From assembly GCA_001786765.1 (NCBI GenBank), contig MFTH01000016.1, positions 21,666-85,665 of the forward strand: 64,000 bases of DNA. The letters run 5' to 3'. Source of the DNA: Candidatus Nomurabacteria bacterium RIFCSPHIGHO2_01_FULL_37_25 (GTDB lineage Bacteria > Patescibacteriota > Minisyncoccia > Phycocordibacterales > UBA9973). The notes under the pieces were generated by a model. It made no database searches, was not told the origin of the DNA, and saw only the letters and a program-made list of their open reading frames with translations. Made by a program: the position numbers and the translations under genes. The number at the start of each line of letters is the position of its first letter. Position 1 is the first letter of the stretch. Below, in pieces: positions 7,676-41,049 of the stretch.

Positions 7676-7710
7676 CCTTCGGTCGCCGAAGCGACCTCAT
7701 AAATTACAAA

Positions 7711-22558: not shown

Positions 22559-23308
22559 TTATTTTTGCAAATGATGCTTTAACGTATAAATCCAGTCTTC
22601 GTGTTCAATAACATCGCTTTTTTCTTTTTCACGCAGAAGCCATTCCAGCCAACCACGGTCTATTTGCAGAACCTCTTCTACTTTCTTTCCTTTATATTTC
22701 CCAAAATTTAATGTTCTTATAAGAAGTGGTTTTGAAGAAATCTCAATCATTCTTTCTATCGCTTTATCTTCGTTTATTTTTTCCTGCTCTATTAATTTCT
22801 TTTTTAACCTTTCAAAAAGTTTTTCCAAAATTAAAACATCTCCAAATGCATCGTGCGCTTGGGCTTCTACATCCAGATCTAGCAAATAGCGTAAATACTG
22901 CAAGTTGTATCTGCCTATTTTTTCTTCTGGGTCTAAATATCTGGCCAGTTTTAATGTGCAAATAAAGTTATTAGGATTTATGTTTTCTTTTTTGATTATG
23001 GTCAAATCAAAAGGCGCATTGTGAGCCACCACAACAGAATCTTTATCTTCAAAAAGTTTTTTGATTTTAGGCTGGTCTTCACTTTTTGAAAAAGGTTTTT
23101 TATTTTCAACCATTTTGTTCGTTATGTGGTGTATGGCCGAAGCTTCCGGAGGTATTTTGATCTCAGGTTTATAAAGACCAACAAATACAGCATCTTCTTT
23201 TTTATCCAAAGAAGAGTAAATCTTGTAAGCAATCTGGACTAAAAAATCCTTTTGTTCATTTCCTGTAGTTTCCGTATCAAAAAATATTAATTTAGACGCT
23301 GTGTTCAT
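22559..23308 (-). CDS. DEDDh 3'-5' exonuclease (DnaQ-like) fused to a C-terminal DUF3820-like domain
   Basis: FFDTETTG (Exo I), VAHNAPFDL (Exo II), HDAFGD (Exo III). C-terminal FGKYKGKKVEEVLQIDRGWLEWLL. Confidence 0.75.
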   Translation of the reverse strand: MNTASKLIFFDTETTGNEQKDFLVQIAYKIYSSLDKKEDAVFVGLYKPEIKIPPEASAIHHITNKMVENKKPFSKSEDQPKIKKLFEDKDSVVVAHNAPFDLTIIKKENINPNNFICTLKLARYLDPEEKIGRYNLQYLRYLLDLDVEAQAHDAFGDVLILEKLFERLKKKLIEQEKINEDKAIERMIEISSKPLLIRTLNFGKYKGKKVEEVLQIDRGWLEWLLREKEKSDVIEHEDWIYTLKHHLQK

Positions 23309-26095: not shown

Positions 26096-26425
26096 GTGGA
26101 TCTTTTAAAACCAGCGTGGAGGTGGATAATCCGCAGGAAGCACGGTAGGGGGGTTACTTTTCTCAACCGTGAAAAGCCTTTATGGCCTAACAGCATCGAT
26201 CCAATTATATTAGACATGAATGATCGGGATCATTGTGTCTTAGCCCAAGTGTATGGAGAGGGGTATAGTGAGGCTTGCCGAAGCCTCAATATAAGCGGGT
26301 CCAATTATGGTTTCGATCTCCCCCAGATGCCAATAAGGCACCGAGGTGCCTACTTTGCGTATTTAAAAAGTCTCTGGCTCGAGGAGCGCGAGAGGCAGCT
26401 CGCAGAAATGAGTGAAGACGTATAG
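26096..26425 (+). CDS. hypothetical protein in a GC-rich islet; GTG start with canonical SD
   Basis: AAGGAGGTG, then 4 nt, then the GTG at 26096. Candidate promoter TTGACA(26026)-17-TAAAAG. Followed by a rho-independent terminator. No recognisable domain. Confidence 0.45.
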   Translation: MDLLKPAWRWIIRRKHGRGVTFLNREKPLWPNSIDPIILDMNDRDHCVLAQVYGEGYSEACRSLNISGSNYGFDLPQMPIRHRGAYFAYLKSLWLEERERQLAEMSEDV

Positions 26426-31055: not shown

Positions 31056-31403
31056 ATGGAAGATGCTGATAAGGTGTTTCTAGAATATGTAGTGAAAGCT
31101 CTTGTTGATAATCCGAACGATGTGAAGATTGATAGGACTGTTGACGAGATGGGTGTGCTTATTTCTCTTACTGTAAATCATGCCGATATGGGTAAGATTA
31201 TCGGAAGAATGGGAAATACCGCAAAAGCTATTCGTACTCTTCTGCGAATCATTGGTATGAAGAATAATGCTCGTGTGAATTTAAAAATCAACGAACCAGA
31301 AGGAAGTGTAAGACCAGAGCGACCTATGGGCGCAAGTAGCGCTAGCGCTCCGAGCTCGTATAAGACAGTAGATCAGGTAATAGAAGATTTAAAGGGAATA
31401 TAA
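31056..31403 (+). CDS. KH-domain RNA-binding protein (KhpA/YlqC-like)
   Basis: VKALVDNPNDVKI...GKIIGRMGNTAKAIRTLL (GxxG KH loop). Confidence 0.75.
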   Translation: MEDADKVFLEYVVKALVDNPNDVKIDRTVDEMGVLISLTVNHADMGKIIGRMGNTAKAIRTLLRIIGMKNNARVNLKINEPEGSVRPERPMGASSASAPSSYKTVDQVIEDLKGI

Positions 31404-33182: not shown

Positions 33183-36100
33183 ATGCCAAAAGAAATGAGT
33201 GATGCAACACGTCCGAAAAAATATTTTAGTAGATATAAAAAACCTCTCGTTCCTTTTCCAAATTTAATTGAAGCTCAACTCAAGAGTTTCAAATGGCTAG
33301 TGGAACAGGGAATTAGCGAAGTCTTCAAAGAATTTTCTCCAATCAGTGATTACTCTACAAAAAAGTTTCAACTTGAATTCACTTCTTTTTCACTTAGTGA
33401 ATGTAAATACGACGAGAATCACGCTAAAATAAATAAACTTTCATATCAAGGACTTCTAAAGACGCGGGTAAAATTAACAAATAAAATTTTAGGTACTGTA
33501 AAGGAACAGGAGATTTTTATGTCTGAACTTCCTTTGATGACTTCTCACGGAACTTTTATTATAAATGGTGTAGAGCGTGTTATCGTTCCGCAGCTTGCTC
33601 GAAGTTTTGGAGTTTTCTTTACCGAGTCCGAGATCAAGGGTAATAAATATTTTGGCGCTAAAATTATTCCAGCTCGTGGAGTTTGGATTGAGATAGAGTC
33701 CGAGGCAGATGGAGCGATTTACATAAGGATAGATAAAAAAAGAAAATTTCCCGCAACAGCATTATTGCGAATTATGGGTTATGAGAATAACGACAACATA
33801 CTGAAGGCTTTTTCTGGAAATCCTATTTTCACAAAAACGATAAAAACTTGTTTAGAAAAAGATGGAGTGAAGAGTCTAAATGATTCATACATTGAGATTT
33901 ATAAACGCTTGAGAGATGGTGATATGGCAACAGCTGATAATGCCAAAGAGTTTATTAATTCTTTATTTACCGCTGAGCGATATGATCTTTCTCCGGTTGG
34001 TCGTTTCAGATTTAACAAACGTTTTGATAAACCTATGGACGATACGGCGCTAGCTCGCAGGACTATTTCCAAAGAGGATTTGGTAACGGTGATTATGAAT
34101 ATTATTCTTTTAAACAATACTCCTTTTGCTAAGAGTGATGACATAGATCATTTAGGTCAGAGACGTGTGCGATTTGTCGGTGAAACACTCCAACAGAAAG
34201 TACGCACCGGGATGATGCAAATCAAAAGAAATATTCAAGACAGAATGTCTATCATAGATGTTGATACCGCAATGCCTATAGCTATTATCAATCAACGCCC
34301 ACTCCAAGCTCGCATCAAAGAATTTTTCACAACCAATCAACTTTCGCAATTCATGGCGCAAGAGAATGTGCTTTATGAAATAGAACATTTACGCACACTT
34401 TCAGCGCTTGGGCCCGGAGGATTGACACGCGAGCGCGCAGGCTTGGAAGTTCGTGATGTGCATCCATCGCATTATGGGAGAGTTTGTCCTATTCATACTC
34501 CTGAAGGTCCAAACATCGGACTTATTTTACACCTTTCTACATATGCAAAGATAAATGAATTTGGGATCATTGAAACTCCATATATCAAAGTTAAAAATGG
34601 CAAGTTAACTGATGAAGTAATTTATCTAAACGCGCTTGAAGAAGAAAAATATAATATTGCGCATGCGGGAACGCCTTATGACTTGAAAGGTAACATAACT
34701 GAAGAAAAAGTAGAAGCTAGGATTAAGACAGAACCAGGCACGATTTCTCGCGATGAGGTTGATTTTATTGATGTTGCTCCAAACCAGGCTTTTTCTGTTG
34801 CAACTTCCATGGTTCCGTTCTTGGAACACAACAATGCTAATCGCGCTTTAATGGGAAGTAATATGCAGAAACAAGCTGTGCCTTGCGTATTGCCAGAAGC
34901 GCCATTAGTCGCTACAGGTATTGAAGAATTAGCAGCGCAAGATTCAGGGAGGTTAATTATAGCGGAGGAAGACGGAGTCATTTCCTATTTGGATGCAAAA
35001 AAGATAGTAATAGAGGGGAAATCTCCTGCCCGCAATGCTTCGCATAGCGATGCAGGCGGAGGAAAGCTTTCTAATAAAACTTACAACCTTGTAAATTTTA
35101 TGAGAAATAATAATTTTGCAGTATTTCATCAGCGTCCACTGGTTAACATTGGCGATAAAATAAAGAAAGGCGATATATTAGCAGATACTAGCAGTACCGT
35201 GGGTGGACAAATTTCGCTGGGACAGAATGTTTTCGTGGCTTTTTTGTCTTGGTCTGGAGCAACTTACGAAGACGCTATAATTGTTTCTGAACGTCTTGTA
35301 AAGAAAAGTAAATTTACATCAGTTTATGTTGAAGAGTTTACTTGCGTAGTTCGTGATACTAAGCTTGGACCTGAAATTACCACTCGTGACATACCAAATG
35401 TTGGAGAGCTCAAGCTCAAAGATTTAGACGAAGATGGTATTGTCCGTATCGGAGCGGAAGTTAGAGAAAATGATATTTTAGTTGGTAAAATTACGCCAAA
35501 AGGCGAGACGGAACTTACTCCAGAGGAGCGGTTGCTACGTTCAATCTTTGCTGAAAAAGCGCGTGATGTTAAAGATACGTCACTACGAGTGGAACATGGT
35601 AAGCGTGGACGCATCATTGGTGTAAAGATTTTTTCTCGCGATTTAGGACATACCCTTGAAGCGGGAATTATTAAAAAAATTATAATTGAAATCGCGCAAA
35701 TCAGAAATATTTCAGTTGGGGACAAACTTTCTGGACGACATGGAAACAAAGGAGTCATTTCAGTAATTCTGCCAGAAGAAGACATGCCCTATATGGCAGA
35801 TGGTACACCAATCGATATTATTCTTTCGCCACTTGGTGTTCCTTCTCGTATGAACTTGGGACAAATTTTTGAAATGCATCTAGGCATGGCGGCTAACAGT
35901 CTTGGTTATCAGGCGATTGTACCCCCATTTTTAAGCGCTAAATATGATGAAATTAAAGAGGAATTAGTAAAAGCCGGACTACCAGAGTCTGGTAAATTAA
36001 AACTTTTTGATGGACGTACCGGAGAAGCTTTTGAGCAAGATGTTGCAGTCGGTTATATGTATATGTTGAAGCTTCATCATATGGTGGAAGACAAAATTCA

Positions 36101-36410
36101 TATGCGTTCAATTGGACCTTATTCTCTTATTACTCAACAGCCTCTCGGTGGAAAAGCTCAAGGCGGAGGACAGAGATTTGGAGAAATGGAAGTTTGGGCA
36201 TTGGAAGGTTATGGCGCAGCTTATACATTGCGTGAAATGCTTACTATTAAATCTGATGACATACTCGGCAGGTCGGCGACATTTGATTCTATTATTAAAA
36301 ATGAGACAATCAGACCGCCAAATTCCCCGGCATCATTTAATGTTTTGCTTAATTATTTGCGAGGTCTAGCCTTGGATGTAAATTTAAAAAAAGGGGGAAG
36401 TAAGGAATAA
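33183..36410 (+). CDS. rpoB: DNA-directed RNA polymerase beta subunit (short, 1075 aa)
   Basis: Conserved blocks across the full length, ending ...NYLRGLALDVNLKKGGSKE. Confidence 0.95.
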   Translation: MPKEMSDATRPKKYFSRYKKPLVPFPNLIEAQLKSFKWLVEQGISEVFKEFSPISDYSTKKFQLEFTSFSLSECKYDENHAKINKLSYQGLLKTRVKLTNKILGTVKEQEIFMSELPLMTSHGTFIINGVERVIVPQLARSFGVFFTESEIKGNKYFGAKIIPARGVWIEIESEADGAIYIRIDKKRKFPATALLRIMGYENNDNILKAFSGNPIFTKTIKTCLEKDGVKSLNDSYIEIYKRLRDGDMATADNAKEFINSLFTAERYDLSPVGRFRFNKRFDKPMDDTALARRTISKEDLVTVIMNIILLNNTPFAKSDDIDHLGQRRVRFVGETLQQKVRTGMMQIKRNIQDRMSIIDVDTAMPIAIINQRPLQARIKEFFTTNQLSQFMAQENVLYEIEHLRTLSALGPGGLTRERAGLEVRDVHPSHYGRVCPIHTPEGPNIGLILHLSTYAKINEFGIIETPYIKVKNGKLTDEVIYLNALEEEKYNIAHAGTPYDLKGNITEEKVEARIKTEPGTISRDEVDFIDVAPNQAFSVATSMVPFLEHNNANRALMGSNMQKQAVPCVLPEAPLVATGIEELAAQDSGRLIIAEEDGVISYLDAKKIVIEGKSPARNASHSDAGGGKLSNKTYNLVNFMRNNNFAVFHQRPLVNIGDKIKKGDILADTSSTVGGQISLGQNVFVAFLSWSGATYEDAIIVSERLVKKSKFTSVYVEEFTCVVRDTKLGPEITTRDIPNVGELKLKDLDEDGIVRIGAEVRENDILVGKITPKGETELTPEERLLRSIFAEKARDVKDTSLRVEHGKRGRIIGVKIFSRDLGHTLEAGIIKKIIIEIAQIRNISVGDKLSGRHGNKGVISVILPEEDMPYMADGTPIDIILSPLGVPSRMNLGQIFEMHLGMAANSLGYQAIVPPFLSAKYDEIKEELVKAGLPESGKLKLFDGRTGEAFEQDVAVGYMYMLKLHHMVEDKIHMRSIGPYSLITQQPLGGKAQGGGQRFGEMEVWALEGYGAAYTLREMLTIKSDDILGRSATFDSIIKNETIRPPNSPASFNVLLNYLRGLALDVNLKKGGSKE

Positions 36411-36415
36411 AATTT

Positions 36416-36799
36416 ATGAAAGATTTTCTTAACTGGCATACCAAAAAATCAAAACTGGATATAATTGAACAAAGACCGTATTTCCACGAAGGGGAAGTCT
36501 GGTATACGAGTTTGGGTTTGAATATAGGCTATGAACAAGATGGAAAAGGGCTGGACTACTTAAGACCAGTGCTGATTGTTAGAAAATTTAATAATGATGT
36601 TTGTTGGATTGTACCACTCACTCACACCCCCAAAGACAATATTTTCTACGTTCATATCACAGTAATAGGAAAATCAAGCACAGCTATACTTTCTCAACTA
36701 AAGCTTCTTGACGCGAGGCGTTTTAGCCATATGATTGATAAAATTTCTGATGAGGATTTTAAGTTAGTAACAAAAAAACTCAAAGGACTAATTCCTTGA
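36416..36799 (+). CDS. PemK/MazF/Kid-family endoribonuclease toxin-like protein (orphan; no adjacent antitoxin ORF)
   Basis: EGEVWYTSLGLNIGYEQDGKGLDYLRPVLIV...WIVPLTHTP aligns with Kid/PemK RGEIWLVSLDPTAGHEQQGTRPVLIV...VVVPVTS. The start codon lies 6 nt after the rpoB stop. Confidence 0.6.
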   Translation: MKDFLNWHTKKSKLDIIEQRPYFHEGEVWYTSLGLNIGYEQDGKGLDYLRPVLIVRKFNNDVCWIVPLTHTPKDNIFYVHITVIGKSSTAILSQLKLLDARRFSHMIDKISDEDFKLVTKKLKGLIP

Positions 36800-36880
36800 G
36801 TTTCTTGTGTTTTTACCTCGTGCCGAAGCACGAGTCGGGCCGAAGCCATTTAGATTCAGATTATAGCAAAATCAAAATAT

Positions 36881-37354
36881 ATGTCAAGTGAAAAACCATT
36901 CTTATTTTATAAGCTAATTATTAACAATTTAACTAAAAACAATATGAAAAATAATCAAAAAGGTTTTGTAAATATTATCTTGATTGGAGTTATTGTTGTA
37001 CTCTTGAGTCTAGTGGGATATTTTAGTATCGAAAAAAAATCTCAGCAATTCAATAAACAACAAACTTCGATAATTCCAAATACGGAAACGCAGATCAGAA
37101 TTGCAATAGAAACAGTGTTAACGGAAGGCAAGTTGTCTAATCCAAATGAGCAAATACCAAAGGGTATCAAATTGCTTTCACTCAAACTTGCGGAAAATAA
37201 TGTAACTCTAAATTTTAGCAAAGAGTATTTGTCTGGAGGACAGGGAGTAGCTGAGGATGTTTTTTCTCTGGTTTCAAATACGATTACTAAAATATACCCA
37301 GAGGTGAACAAATTTACGATTTTAATTGAAGGGGAAAACATACAAGACTATTAA
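36881..37354 (+). CDS. membrane-anchored GerMN-like domain protein (start probably at the internal Met MKNNQKGF)
   Basis: TM helix IILIGVIVVLLSLVGYF. C-terminal LNFSKEYLSGGQG...TILIEGE resembles the GerMN fold. Confidence 0.35.
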   Translation: MSSEKPFLFYKLIINNLTKNNMKNNQKGFVNIILIGVIVVLLSLVGYFSIEKKSQQFNKQQTSIIPNTETQIRIAIETVLTEGKLSNPNEQIPKGIKLLSLKLAENNVTLNFSKEYLSGGQGVAEDVFSLVSNTITKIYPEVNKFTILIEGENIQDY

Positions 37355-37398: not shown

Positions 37399-40300
37399 AT
37401 GAAAACCTTAAACACAACTGAATTTGATTCCATAGCTCTACGACTGGCTTCACCGGAGCAGGTAAAAGAGTGGTCTTTTGGAGAAGTTACTAAACCAGAA
37501 ACAATAAATTACCGCACTGGCAGGTCTGAACGCGGTGGTCTTTTTGATGAGAAAATATTTGGACCAGAAAAAGATTACGAATGCTATTGTGGAAAGTATC
37601 GTAGGATTCGTTATAAAGATATTATTTGTGAGAAATGCGGAGTTGAAGTTACTCGTTCTATAGTCAGACGTGAGCGAATGGGGCATATAGAGCTAGGAAC
37701 TCCAGTCTCGCATATTTGGTTTTTGCGCGGAGTGCCTTCTCGAATGAGTATCTTGCTCAATATTTCTGTTTCTGATCTAGAGAAGGTTATATATTTTGCT
37801 GGTTACATAATTACCAAAGTTCATGAAGAAGAAAAAGAGTCTGTTATCACGGGTCTAGAAAAAGAATATAAAGTTAAATTAAAAAATGCAGTTGATGACG
37901 ACACTCGAGAGAAATTGAAGAATCTGCTTTCTGTTATAAAAAAAGAGATTGGAGAAATTTATGAAGGAAAAGTTTTAAATGAAATTTCTTTTCATCACTA
38001 TTCTTTAAAATACGGAACTTGTTTTGAAGCAAACATAGGCGCTGAAGCGATCTATTCTATTTTTAAAAATCTAGATTTGAATAAATTAAAAGTTTATACG
38101 GAGAAAATGATAGAGGGAGTTAGTATGATTGAAAAAGAGAAATTGCAAAAAAGGCTTTCTCTTATTCGCGCTATGACTTATGCGGGGATTCGACCTGAAT
38201 GGATGTTTCTAACTGTTATCCCAGTCATCCCGCCCGTTTTGCGTCCAATGGTTGCTCTTGATGGAGGCAGGCATGCGACTTCTGATTTAAACGATCTTTA
38301 TCGTCGAGTTATAAACAGAAACAATCGTTTGAAAAAGTTAAAAGAAATTAATGCTCCAGATGTAATCCTGCGAAATGAAAAAAGAATTATTCAGGAAGCA
38401 GTCGATGCGTTGATTGATAATTCAATTGCCAAACAAAATGATTCGGCTGCGATGAGTCAATCCCAAAAGCGTCCCTTAAAATCCTTGTCAGATAATCTAA
38501 AGTCTAAACAAGGTCTTTTCCGACAGAACTTACTTGGAAAAAGAGTGGACTATTCAGGACGCTCGGTTATTGTTGTCGGTCCCAATCTAAAATTAAACCA
38601 ATGTGGATTGCCGAAGCATATGGCGCTGGAACTTTTTAGACCATTTGTAATTTCTAAAATTTTACAAGCAGAATTGGCATTTAATATTCGTGGAGCTAAT
38701 AAGCTCATAGAAGAACGCACTCCCGAGGTCTGGGCGATGTTGGAAGAAGTTATTGCGGGCAAATATGTTCTTTTAAACCGCGCGCCGACTCTGCATCGTC
38801 TAGGTATTCAAGCTTTTAATCCGATTTTAATTGAAGGAAATGCAATTCAGATTCATCCTCTTGTTTGTCAGGCTTTTAATGCTGACTTTGATGGAGACCA
38901 AATGGCAGTTTATGTTCCGTTACTGGAAGAAGCTCAATCCGAAGCCAAAGAATTAATGGCTTCAAATAAAAATTTACTTAAACCGCAAAACGGAGATGCT
39001 ATAGTGCACCCTCGTATGGACATGGTGCTTGGAAGCTATTGGATGACAAAATCAATGGATGGGGAAAAAGGTGAAGACAAGTATTTTTCACGTCCAAATG
39101 TTGCTATTAGCGCCTATGAATACGGGATCATTTCTCTACGCGCTAAAATAAAAGTTCTAGCAAGAGATGATTTCAAATACAAAAAATTTGCTCCGGGAAT
39201 ATTTGAAACTTCTGTCGGAAAACTTCTTTTCAATAGCATCTTGCCGGACGATTTTTCTTATGTTAATGATGAAATGACTCAAGACAGGCTTTCAGCCCTC
39301 TTGGACGAACTTATCATACATTCAGGTGTGGAAAATATTCCAGCTATTCTAGACAAAATTAAAGCATTTGGTTTTAAATACGCGACGGTTTCTGGAACTA
39401 CTTGGGGATTGGACAATGTTTCTATGTCACCCGAAAAACCAAAGATTATAGCTCAAGGTAAAAAATTGGAAGAAGAAACAATATCACAGTGGCGTGAAGG
39501 TCTTTTGTCTGAAGAAGAAAAATATCAGAAAATTATTGAAATTTGGACGCATACAAAAAAAGAATTGGAAAAAGTTTTACCAAAAACTCTCGACAAAAAA
39601 AGTTCCACTTATGATTTATTCACTTCTAAAGCTAGAGGCACTATGTCGTCCCTTATGCAAATGACCGGGATGATTGGACTTATTCAAAATAATCAAGGCA
39701 AGACTTTGGAATTTCCTATTATTCCTTCTTATCAAGAGGGACTTTCTCCAATTGAATATTTCGTTATTACTCACGGCGCTCGCAAAGGCGCTTCAGACAC
39801 TGCTCTCAACACTGCTAAAGCTGGGTATTTGACACGAAGATTGGTTGATGTGGCTCAAGATGTGGTTATTACTGAAAAAGACTGTGGAACAAAAGAAGGG
39901 AAAATAATTACCAGAGAGAATATTTCTGGAATTGAAATTCCACTTTCAAAAAATATTCATGGACGCATATTAGGAACTGATTTGAAAGATAAAAATGGCA
40001 AAGTGCTTTACAAGAAAGGATTTTTAGTCACTAAAGAAGAAGCTCACAACATCGAAGGGGCGGGCTTTACCGAAGTGTTTGTTCGTTCTCCACTGACTTG
40101 TCGTACTGTTCACGGTCTTTGTCAAATGTGCTACGGTCTTGATTTAGGGCGTAATCGTTTAGTAGATTTAGGTGAGGCGGTGGGTATTATAGCAGCTCAA
40201 GCTATCGGCGAACCGGGCACTCAATTAACATTGCGTACATTTCACGCAGGAGGTGTAGCAGGCACTGACATAACGACTGGGTTACCGCGCGTTGAGGAAA

Positions 40301-41049
40301 TATTTGAAAGAAGAATTCCTAAAAATCCTGCAGTTATTTCAGAGACGGACGGGGAAGTAATTTCTATTTCAACTAAAGAGGACAAATCTGCTAATTCTCA
40401 AGACCATTCGCTCTCCGGCGGGGAAAAAATTATTAAAGTTTTATCGGATGTCAAACTTGATGGCAAAAATGACAACAAGAAAAACGAGATTGAGTATGTA
40501 GTGGCATTTCGCAGAATACCGACAGTTAAGGTGGGTGATAAAATCAAAAAAGGAGATCTTTTAACTGATGGATCGGCTGATGTCGCTGAGATTTTTAAAT
40601 TTGGCGGTAAAGAATTAGTCGAAGAGTATTTAATTCGAGAAATAAATAAAGTTTATGAACTGCAGAGCGCTTCAATTTCAAGAAAACACACAGAAATAAT
40701 TATTCGTCAAATGTTTTCACGCAGGAAAATAAAAGATGCAGGGGAGACTAATTTCTCCATTGGCAATATTGTTGAAAATGCCGAATTTATAGAAGAAAAT
40801 GCCAGGGTTCCCGAGGGTAAACAAGCAAAAGCAGAAATAGTCGTGCTTGGTATTACAGAAGTTTCGCTTCGCACTAAGAGTTGGCTTTCAGCCGCATCGT
40901 TTCAGAACACAAACCGTGTGCTGATTGAAAATGCGATCAAAGGCGGAGTGGATTCTCTCCGAGGGTTAAAAGAAAATGTTATAATTGGTAGATTAATACC
41001 AGCTGGAACTGGATTCAAGAATAAAACAAAGACTATGGCTGAAAAATAG
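37399..41049 (+). CDS. rpoC: DNA-directed RNA polymerase beta' subunit (short, 1216 aa)
   Basis: Zinc-binding [27 protein letters not shown] catalytic motif. Confidence 0.95.

Follow-up and report, generated by a model that had tools for sequence, protein, structure and literature searches.

The 64,000-nucleotide (nt) stretch of contig MFTH01000016.1 from Candidatus Nomurabacteria bacterium RIFCSPHIGHO2_01_FULL_37_25 that was analysed here (hereafter the window) carries, between the RNA polymerase genes rpoB and rpoC, a pemK/mazF-like toxin gene and, convergent to it, a gene for a small RNA (sRNA). The two genes are strictly linked in the family to which they belong, and the structure of the RNA, the strand from which it is read and its promoter are conserved. 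We propose, with a probability of roughly 0.7, that together they form a mobile module of a MazF-type toxin and an RNA antitoxin, which entered the rpoB-rpoC spacer recently and in which the sRNA would act preferentially by binding the toxin protein, in the manner of type III toxin-antitoxin (TA) systems, with additional control at the level of the mRNA. A preliminary description of this region had seen in the same gene an orphan toxin, either a domesticated regulator of rpoBC expression or an addiction module that had lost its antitoxin; the open reading frames (ORFs), the hairpin CTCGTGC-cgaa-GCACGAG (36817-36834) and the rpoC gene on which it drew were all recovered where it had placed them.

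A convergent small RNA gene at the 3' end of the toxin gene

The toxin ORF (36416..36799, + strand, 127 amino acids (aa), stop codon at 36797-36799) starts 5 nt past the rpoB stop codon and is opposed by an sRNA gene of ~85 nt (36769..36855, - strand), which was delimited by a covariance model match, covariation and its promoter. This promoter (36860..36887, - strand) consists of a -35 box TTGACA (36887-36882), a 16-nt spacer and a -10 box TATAAT (36865-36860), a 12/12 match to the sigma-70 consensus with an extended -10 TG, and transcription is predicted to start near 36853 and to end at ~36770. From 5' to 3', the RNA is composed of a single strand AUCUAAAU (family consensus ACAAAYGG), hairpin 2 (GGC-UUCG-GCC, 36838..36847, - strand), the trinucleotide CGA, hairpin 1 (CUCGUGC-UUCG-GCACGAG, 36817..36834, - strand), an A-rich linker, a terminator hairpin and a U-run. 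Both hairpins were assigned from the family alignment and covariation, hairpin 1 also from a tetraloop census. The hairpin singled out by the preliminary description is thus present, not as a stand-alone element, however, but as hairpin 1 of the antisense sRNA, and its suggestion that an unannotated antisense RNA be sought was borne out.

The terminator hairpin (36779-36800) reads CTCAAAGGA-ctaat-TCCTTGAG on the plus strand and CUCAAGGA-AUUAG-UCCUUUGAG, followed by UUUUUUU, in the sRNA. It spans the pemK stop codon and the last ~8 codons, and in the Patescibacteria clade the sRNA terminator overlaps the last ~10 codons of the toxin ORF. Since a U-run follows the hairpin on the minus strand (36778-36772) and a stretch rich in T follows it on the plus strand (36801-36815), we regard it as a bidirectional terminator (36772..36800, both strands). 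A simple terminator scan of the window missed this element, and the call rests on the alignment, covariation and U-run counts.

Relatives of the toxin were collected by a scan of species-representative genomes, which returned at least 500, nearly all of them from Patescibacteria lineages (Nomura-, Yanofsky-, Staskawicz-, Kaiser-, Giovannoni-, Taylor-, Zambryski-, Komeili-, Falkowbacteria and others) or from unclassified 'bacterium' bins; 80 loci were kept. Between different genomic contexts, homology at the DNA level extends from the pemK ATG to ~100 nt past the stop codon, and the non-coding stretch is better conserved than the ORF. No conserved promoter of the toxin gene itself was found, homology among the pemK loci beginning only at the ATG. 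Among 85 non-redundant loci, a promoter scoring at least 10/12 at a fixed position, with the -35 box starting 75-92 nt past the stop, was present on the minus strand in 58 and on the plus strand in 3.

The three hairpins were recovered independently by RNAalifold from 40 diverse sequences. Standard pairs occupy 94.3% of the cells, versus 28-52% in controls in which the partners were slid by 1-3 columns; compensatory changes are seen in 11 of the 18 sRNA pairs, and none of 500 shuffles matched the observed values for pairing and covariation. The terminator helix covaries although it is partly coding, and the stem of hairpin 1 covaries freely. Hairpin 2 is nearly invariant across the Patescibacteria clade, and its rare variants are compensated swaps (GCC..GGC in locus L060, UCC..GGA in L182). 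Several features moreover assign the RNA to the minus strand. On this strand, G.U pairs outnumber A.C pairs by 40 to 12, and UNCG or GNRA tetraloops account for 165 of 245 hairpin loops compared with 3 of 238 on the plus strand, the loop of hairpin 1 being such a tetraloop only in the minus-strand reading. The fold is more stable on the minus than on the plus strand in 74 of 82 cases, and a U-run (5 U or more within the 8 positions that follow the terminator stem) is found in 39 of 40 aligned sRNAs, even where the encoded amino acids differ.

The covariance model of this RNA, R1, has a single strong match in the 64-kb window (36855-36769, - strand; 90.2 bits, E=2e-24). Over 547 kb of loci, it matched directly beside 87 of 88 pemK ORFs and gave only four weak matches elsewhere; the label of an orphan that lost its antitoxin is hence difficult to maintain for a gene whose family members have a convergent sRNA partner in 87 of 88 cases searched. 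Rfam contained no relevant match at E up to 10 for positions 36350-37000 of the window and no match at E up to 1 for six diverse loci, the pemK RNA motif being included in both searches, and R1 had no matches on viral contigs. An interpretation of the sRNA motif as a dispersed repeat (REP or MITE) was rejected, given that the window holds one copy of it. Two loci (L021:3013-4552 and L082:2270-3435) carry two complete pemK-sRNA modules each, within ~1 kb, and hairpin units duplicated in tandem within one sRNA region occur only in L028, L050 and the viral locus L179.

The toxin is predicted to be a MazF-fold endoribonuclease without a protein antitoxin

The assignment of the toxin to the PemK/MazF family, made before from the sequence, was confirmed both by profile and by fold. 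The protein (100% identical to A2641_02795) matches the Pfam family PemK_toxin (PF02452) with 41.0 bits at a cut-off of 23.1, with residues 25-123 covered, and its AlphaFold (AF2) model, built from 36 homologues, has a pLDDT (predicted local distance difference test) score of 86.8. The best Foldseek matches of this model are the MazF proteins of S. aureus, B. subtilis (YdcE/EndoA), M. tuberculosis (MazF-mt1) and E. coli, with a probability of 1.0 and template modelling (TM) scores of 0.62-0.80, and the model shows the SH3-like beta-barrel of the MazF/Kid fold. In a profile alignment to B. subtilis MazF, R25 and T48 fall on Arg50 and Thr69 of the toxin (R29 and T52 in E. coli MazF), so that the catalytic residues, whose conservation the preliminary description had wished to see checked, are kept; in the family alignment, Arg50 is invariant and position 69 is Thr or Ser. 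Two features are specific to the family, namely an N-terminal helix (residues 4-16) with an invariant Trp7 and a 5-residue insertion in the beta1-beta2 loop (GKGxxF). Relatives of the toxin in PHROGs are annotated as growth inhibitors. On the basis of these comparisons, the protein would be a toxic endoribonuclease of the MazF/PemK fold that carries an N-terminal extension and has kept its catalytic residues.

In the pemK ORFs of 87 loci, GTCAA/AGTCA (the -35 core TTGAC in reverse complement) and the palindromes ACGT, GATC and TCGA are rarer than in synonymous-codon shuffles, perhaps because spurious antisense promoters and restriction sites are avoided.

An all-against-all comparison of 880 small ORFs revealed no conserved protein-antitoxin ORF flanking the toxin gene here or in 93 related loci, in agreement with the earlier observation that such an ORF is missing. 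The only small-ORF families common to the 93 loci are frames over the conserved RNA or over pemK itself, and no adjacent antitoxin gene of the type II (MazEF-like) kind was thus found. In annotated records outside Patescibacteria, likewise, no antitoxin is annotated beside family members. A minus-strand ORF of 51 aa (36849-36694) was considered as an antitoxin candidate and rejected: its ATG lies in a conserved CCATTT, yet approximately one third of the loci have CCGTTT and hence no ATG, and no frame is conserved.

The module was inserted recently and recurs in unrelated contexts

The spacer between rpoB (33183..36410, + strand, 1075 aa; identified from the ORF list and from the Pfam domains of the identical gene in locus L094) and rpoC (37399..41049, + strand, 1216 aa, from the ORF list) measures 988 nt in the window. 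In 74 related loci, obtained by probing metagenome contigs with the C-terminus of rpoB, the median spacer is ~44 nt, which bears out the view that a gene in this position is unusual. The survey of relatives proposed by the preliminary description did not recover the same insert in the nearest ones, their spacers being 21 nt in L108 (98% identity in the rpoB C-terminus) and 9 nt in L096 and L097 (93%). Alignment of filled and empty sites delineates a clean insertion of ~970 nt, from the rpoB stop codon to ~12 nt before the rpoC ATG, and neither an integrase nor a cassette array nor a target duplication is visible where it joins the flanking DNA. Because rpoB and rpoC are only 9-21 nt apart in the nearest relatives, these alignments show the insertion in the window to be recent.

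In a further relative (L098, 92% identity in rpoB), a different PemK gene lies 7 nt behind rpoB; its product is 44% identical to the toxin of the window, and it has its own version of the sRNA. L098 and the window point to two independent dockings at the same site. Downstream of the module in L098, a P-loop NTPase-like ORF (…LILTGSVGVGKSS…, L098:1045-1348) takes the place of the GerMN-like gene that follows the module in the window, and this short contig ends before rpoC. The rpoB-rpoC junction of other Patescibacteria occasionally receives other insertions as well: an enlarged spacer of 904 nt (L141:2998-3903) contains a 238-aa ORF resembling IS200/REP-type Y1 transposases, and one of 1531 nt (L160:2471-4003) a 194-aa ORF of no assigned function.

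Close orthologues of the toxin, all of 127 aa and 73-87% identical, reside in unrelated neighbourhoods: 4 nt behind the gene of RNase III (rnc) in L001, between two paralogous ~570-aa zinc-ribbon proteins in L004, and behind a 305-aa gene of no assigned function in L007. A homologue with 52% identity is found 4 nt behind CTP synthase (pyrG). The ~570-aa Zn-ribbon protein that neighbours the gene in L001, L004 and L014, and that was considered as an ancestral neighbour, is absent from the window. In the Nomurabacteria contig of L001, a pair resembling a diversity-generating retroelement (a bAvd accessory protein and an RVT_1 reverse transcriptase, L001:2531-3929) is located ~2 kb upstream of pemK. 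Taken together, the distribution of contexts describes a recurrent, recent docking of a mobile module rather than a conserved component of the operon.

Relatives in restriction-modification operons, plasmids and phages

The family reaches far beyond the close orthologues, and an exhaustive profile search retrieved 481 clusters (at 50% identity) at E<=1e-30 and 1986 at E<=1e-10. Divergent members with 38-40% identity, from Campylobacterota and other bacteria, are situated inside type I restriction-modification (R-M) operons, between hsdM and hsdS and beside an Abi_C gene. Examples of the hsdM - pemK - hsdS arrangement are L180:934-4567 and L182:1-4760, with the Abi_C-domain gene adjoining in L182. 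These members have the same minus-strand promoter, followed by ACAAUUG-UCC-UUCG-GGA-UG-CCCUCUGA-UCUC-UCAGAGGG, in which hairpin 2 is fully compensated. Proteins 33-43% identical to the toxin are encoded on viral contigs, and inspection by eye of four viral loci identified an analogous promoter and two hairpins in three of them, one with two tandem units. In a 5.8-kb plasmid of H. suis (L183, NZ_AP019776.1 4164-4559), the family member overlaps the end of the relaxase gene, and in C. jejuni CJIE4 prophages (L185, phage CJIE4-3, KF751795.1 31945-32379) it is placed between the genes of the terminase large subunit and the portal protein; both placements mirror the docking between rpoB and rpoC. 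Further carriers are Nitratiruptor plasmids, the megaplasmids of C. jejuni and C. coli, and the plasmid pVir of C. jejuni 81-176.

The pVir member allows a comparison with published transcript data. CJJ81176_pVir0047 (NC_008770.1 30634-31038) matches the family profile end to end (hhalign, 99.4%), and from the sequence downstream of it a minus-strand transcription start site (TSS) was predicted at 31119, 7 nt after a TGATATAAT box. Dugar et al. 2013 (PMC3656092) list in their Table S12 a Northern-detected sRNA, CJpv3, of 77 nt on the minus strand from 31119 to 31043, between pVir0047 and pVir0048, and the published TSS coincides exactly with the predicted position. In the differential RNA-seq (dRNA-seq) data of the same study (Table S5), the TSS of CJpv3 has a height of 16164 versus 28 for that of pVir0047. 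A homologous locus thus makes such an sRNA in vivo, with a TSS signal far above that of the toxin. A passage of PMC7826846 that cites Shen et al. 2016 presents the cjrA RNA of pVir as an experimentally validated type I antitoxin. In our reading, it is likely that cjrA is CJpv3 and that cjpT is pVir0047. Dugar et al. 2013 (PMC3656092) also report a second Northern-positive sRNA of pVir, CJpv2 (NC_008770.1 25268, + strand; L187), in a 476-nt gap between two hypothetical genes.

Proposed mechanism and alternative explanations

In the mechanism we envisage, the module would have been inserted together with or beside the GerMN-like gene into a normally tiny rpoB-rpoC spacer, and the toxin gene, without a promoter of its own, would be read from the upstream host gene, here rpoB. 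The sRNA would be the antitoxin and, made in large excess, would keep the RNase harmless; once its synthesis stops, be it through loss of the module, shut-off of transcription or phage infection, the toxin would be freed. The toxin protein would bind the conserved 5' strand and hairpin 2 directly, as in type III systems, and the antisense overlap at the 3' end might add a type I-like control at the mRNA level, notably on read-through transcripts, both modes being compatible. We prefer an interaction at the protein level because cis-antisense pairing alone leaves the near-invariance of the 5' strand and hairpin 2 unexplained: the complementarity of such an RNA to its target follows from the gene layout itself, so that pairing does not account for the conservation. 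Between proteins that share only ~45% identity, the 5' strand and hairpin 2 hardly vary, the compensated swaps in hairpin 2 go in step with divergent protein subfamilies, hairpin units are at times duplicated in tandem, and the toxin is the sole partner that always travels with the sRNA. We infer the antitoxin role of the sRNA as well as its mode of neutralisation.

Several observations weigh against this proposal. The toxin ORFs show no depletion of ACA/ACAAA-type motifs when set against synonymous shuffles, hence a model in which the sRNA acts as a pseudo-substrate receives no support from self-avoidance. The family is very common in Patescibacteria and usually single-copy per locus, which makes a housekeeping role conceivable, and PADLOC-DB 2.0 has no model for the toxin, its only match being a chance-level one (E=0.017) to a restriction enzyme model. 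Approximately 40% of the family members lie within 30 nt of an upstream gene on the same strand, and read-out from a host gene is accordingly not universal. Lastly, should cjrA be CJpv3, the pVir antitoxin is catalogued as type I, acting at the mRNA level, which speaks against our preference for protein binding, and CJpv2 is an alternative candidate for cjrA.

A purely type I-like action, in which the sRNA would base-pair either with the toxin mRNA, at its 3' end, or with a transcript that reads through rpoB-pemK-rpoC and cause RNase III cleavage or a block of translation, the hairpins serving stability and termination only, appears unlikely to us, though it deserves serious consideration. In its favour, type I systems of Gram-positive bacteria have this convergent layout with overlapping 3' ends as their standard architecture (PMC8167048), and in the Patescibacteria clade the last codons of the toxin ORF are covered by the sRNA terminator. 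PMC7826846 classes cjrA as type I, and in C. jejuni the TSS signal of the sRNA vastly exceeds that of the toxin. Cis-antisense pairing imposes no constraint on sequence, however, yet the 5' strand and hairpin 2 remain near-invariant over protein identities of ~45-100%. UNCG and GNRA tetraloops are moreover poor kissing loops, a toxin mRNA ending at the shared terminator would offer for overlap only a stable hairpin, and the mapped pVir sRNA ends 5 nt outside the ORF. Pairing in trans of the sRNA 5' part with the start region of the toxin, on the model of SprA1AS, was predicted for the cognate translation start region with no advantage over shuffled or non-cognate controls. The toxin, furthermore, is a soluble RNase of 127 aa and not a small hydrophobic peptide.

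That the two genes do not form a TA pair at all, the protein being a non-toxic RNA-processing or RNA-binding partner of the sRNA, or the sRNA an independent trans-acting regulator that merely shares the terminator, with a housekeeping or regulatory role, seems improbable. Such a role would fit the abundance of the family in Paceibacteria (at least 500 species representatives, 481-1986 clusters), the usual single copy per locus, an apparently frequent co-transcription with housekeeping genes and the missing PADLOC match; it would not fit a position that is unstable even among close relatives, the module being absent from the rpoBC locus of the nearest ones, nor the members in R-M/Abi islands, plasmids and prophages, the tandem duplicates, the intact catalytic residues, the growth-inhibitor annotation of the PHROGs relatives and the RNA antitoxin described as validated on pVir in PMC7826846. 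Even less can be said for the earlier idea of an orphan MazF or domesticated rpoBC regulator with an ordinary terminator or attenuator hairpin. The gene does sit inside the rpoB-rpoC operon, 5 nt behind rpoB and without a protein antitoxin, and a bidirectional terminator with a convergent promoter should influence read-through into rpoC; nevertheless, a conserved RNA partner exists, the hairpin is conserved along with a promoter firing the opposite way, the relatives with 98% and 93% identical rpoB C-termini have no insert, orthologues stand behind rnc, pyrG and other genes, and the member behind rpoB in L098 is only 44% identical. On these comparative grounds we consider that idea largely refuted, and it is more likely that the module exploits a strongly transcribed site than that it evolved to regulate rpoBC. 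Equally remote is an element acting at the DNA level, such as an attC-like recombination or attachment site or a mere bidirectional terminator with incidental promoter-like boxes. A promoterless ORF with a conserved inverted-repeat region does resemble an integron cassette, and the insertion sites are variable and precise, but the promoter hexamers occur at a fixed distance on one strand only, the G.U pairs and tetraloop classes show the strand specificity characteristic of RNA, the homologous pVir locus makes RNA in vivo, and the junctions show no integrase, cassette array or target duplication.

The GerMN-like gene and other features of the locus

Between the module and rpoC, the window encodes a GerMN (Germane) domain protein with an N-terminal membrane anchor (36944..37354, + strand; start at 36881 in the ORF list). 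Its assignment in the preliminary description holds, the protein matching Germane (PF10646) with 42.1 bits (cut-off 23) and having one hydrophobic anchor segment before the domain; the length of 157 aa, counted from 36881, probably does not. We prefer the ATG at 36944 because the only non-identical homologue (P0122) aligns from NQKG on and because 36881 falls within the -35 box of the sRNA promoter. The homologues found were that of the same strain (L094) and the aforementioned non-identical one, a protein of 50% identity in another context, which follows a tRNA-like sequence (identified by eye). With only two homologues, of which the non-identical one is located elsewhere, the notion of a conserved resident of the rpoB-rpoC spacer was rejected; the gene belongs to the same ~970-nt insertion and lies outside the conserved module.

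A polymerase coming from rpoB would meet the toxin ORF, the bidirectional terminator, a head-on consensus promoter and the GerMN-like gene before it reaches rpoC. If rpoC is expressed from the rpoB promoter, read-through transcripts across the module must exist here. A weak promoter-like sequence (TTGACG-16-TATGAT, 10/12; 36708-36735, + strand) within the 3' part of the toxin ORF might contribute to the expression of the GerMN-like gene and rpoC.

The 8-mer GCCGAAGC occurs 7 times in the window versus ~1 expected, among others at 23136, 38610 and 52324. At 7685 (7676-7700), it forms the loop of a GGTCGC-CGAA-GCGACC hairpin immediately after a tRNA gene, and at 26277 (26268-26290) the loop of another hairpin. 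Such hairpins may be a preferred terminator or stabiliser type of this genome, and the copies outside the sRNA gene are loops of unrelated hairpins.

Implications and comparison with known systems

MazF and PemK are textbook type II toxins that are assumed to require a protein antitoxin, and genes without one are annotated as orphans. The present analysis couples a whole PemK subfamily (481 clusters at E<=1e-30; at least 500 species representatives) to an sRNA that was missed by annotation pipelines and by Rfam, and 'orphan' PemK genes of this type therefore merit a check for a convergent sRNA. It also adds one of the few well-supported sRNA families to the Candidate Phyla Radiation, in which RNA regulation is almost unexplored, and suggests that Patescibacteria make use of sigma-70 consensus promoters and of sRNAs capped by tetraloops. 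Recurrent insertions between normally inseparable genes (rpoB/rpoC, terminase/portal) suggest that essential operons can lend their transcription to selfish or defence modules. Tentatively, and with the odds somewhat against it, we speculate that these loci represent a large and so far unrecognised class in which a MazF-fold RNase is neutralised through direct binding by a convergent structured sRNA, combining type I architecture, a type II toxin and type III logic. Such modules would dock without a promoter, either within R-M operons or downstream of essential genes with high expression (rpoB, pyrG, rnc, phage terminase, plasmid relaxase), and would serve as abortive-infection or addiction devices in Patescibacteria, Campylobacterota and their phages. 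The relatives on plasmids and prophages of C. jejuni, Helicobacter and Nitratiruptor make the class testable in culturable hosts.

RNA-antitoxin systems are already known from types I and III, and the founder of the present pairing has probably been studied on pVir of C. jejuni. In the literature and databases searched, we found no description of the conserved three-hairpin sRNA family of Patescibacteria, of the breadth of a MazF-plus-sRNA class, of its embedding in R-M or phage morphogenesis operons, or of docking between rpoB and rpoC. The pVir0047/CJpv3 pair shares with the locus of the window the protein family, with its N-terminal Trp helix and GKG loop insertion, and the layout, in which an opposite-strand sRNA starts from a strong promoter ~80 nt past the stop and folds into consecutive hairpins, the last of them abutting the stop codon; in pVir, this sRNA is much more abundant than the toxin transcript. 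The pair differs in that pVir0047 is only 31% identical to the toxin of the window, is plasmid-borne and has a toxin TSS of its own instead of being docked behind a host gene, and in that CJpv3 is unrelated in sequence to the Patescibacteria sRNA at the level of the covariance model and ends 5 nt outside the ORF, whereas the terminator of the Patescibacteria sRNA overlaps the ORF end.

The Rfam pemK RNA motif, a structured RNA likewise associated with pemK genes, is found upstream of them in Firmicutes and is probably cis-regulatory, in contrast to the RNA described here, which is downstream, convergent and separately transcribed and gave no covariance match to that motif. With the type II systems MazEF and PemIK (Kis-Kid), the toxin has the fold, the catalytic Arg and Thr and the Pfam family in common; it is set apart by its additional N-terminal helix and beta1-beta2 loop insertion, by the lack of a MazE/PemI-type antitoxin gene upstream or nearby, and by a partner that is an RNA. 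Type I systems with 3' overlap (txpA/RatA, bsrG/SR4, sprA1/SprA1AS) have the same architecture, in which the toxin and sRNA genes converge with overlapping 3' ends (PMC8167048), with a strong constitutive sRNA promoter and a shared bidirectional terminator region, and the convergent promoter and terminator overlap do make the sRNA of the window a cis-encoded antisense RNA overlapping the toxin transcript. Their toxins are, however, small hydrophobic membrane peptides and not soluble MazF-fold RNases, and the sRNA of the window possesses a deeply conserved, non-overlapping 5' module. The fold of ToxN is related to that of Kid and MazF, and in the type III systems (ToxIN, CptIN, TenpIN, AbiQ/antiQ) an endoribonuclease toxin is countered by a structured RNA and not by a protein, as we propose here. 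Type III antitoxins are encoded as tandem repeats that precede the toxin gene in the same orientation, a terminator separating the two (PMC8167048), whereas the module of the window has no such array and instead a single convergent downstream sRNA with its own promoter, and its toxin matches PF02452 and not the ToxN family. Like the module described here, type III systems are mobile and associated with defence, and their tandem organisation finds a counterpart in the hairpin units that are sometimes duplicated in this family; the invariance of the 5' strand and hairpin 2, together with the co-variation of the latter with the protein subfamily, hints that the sRNA binds its toxin directly, as type III antitoxins do.

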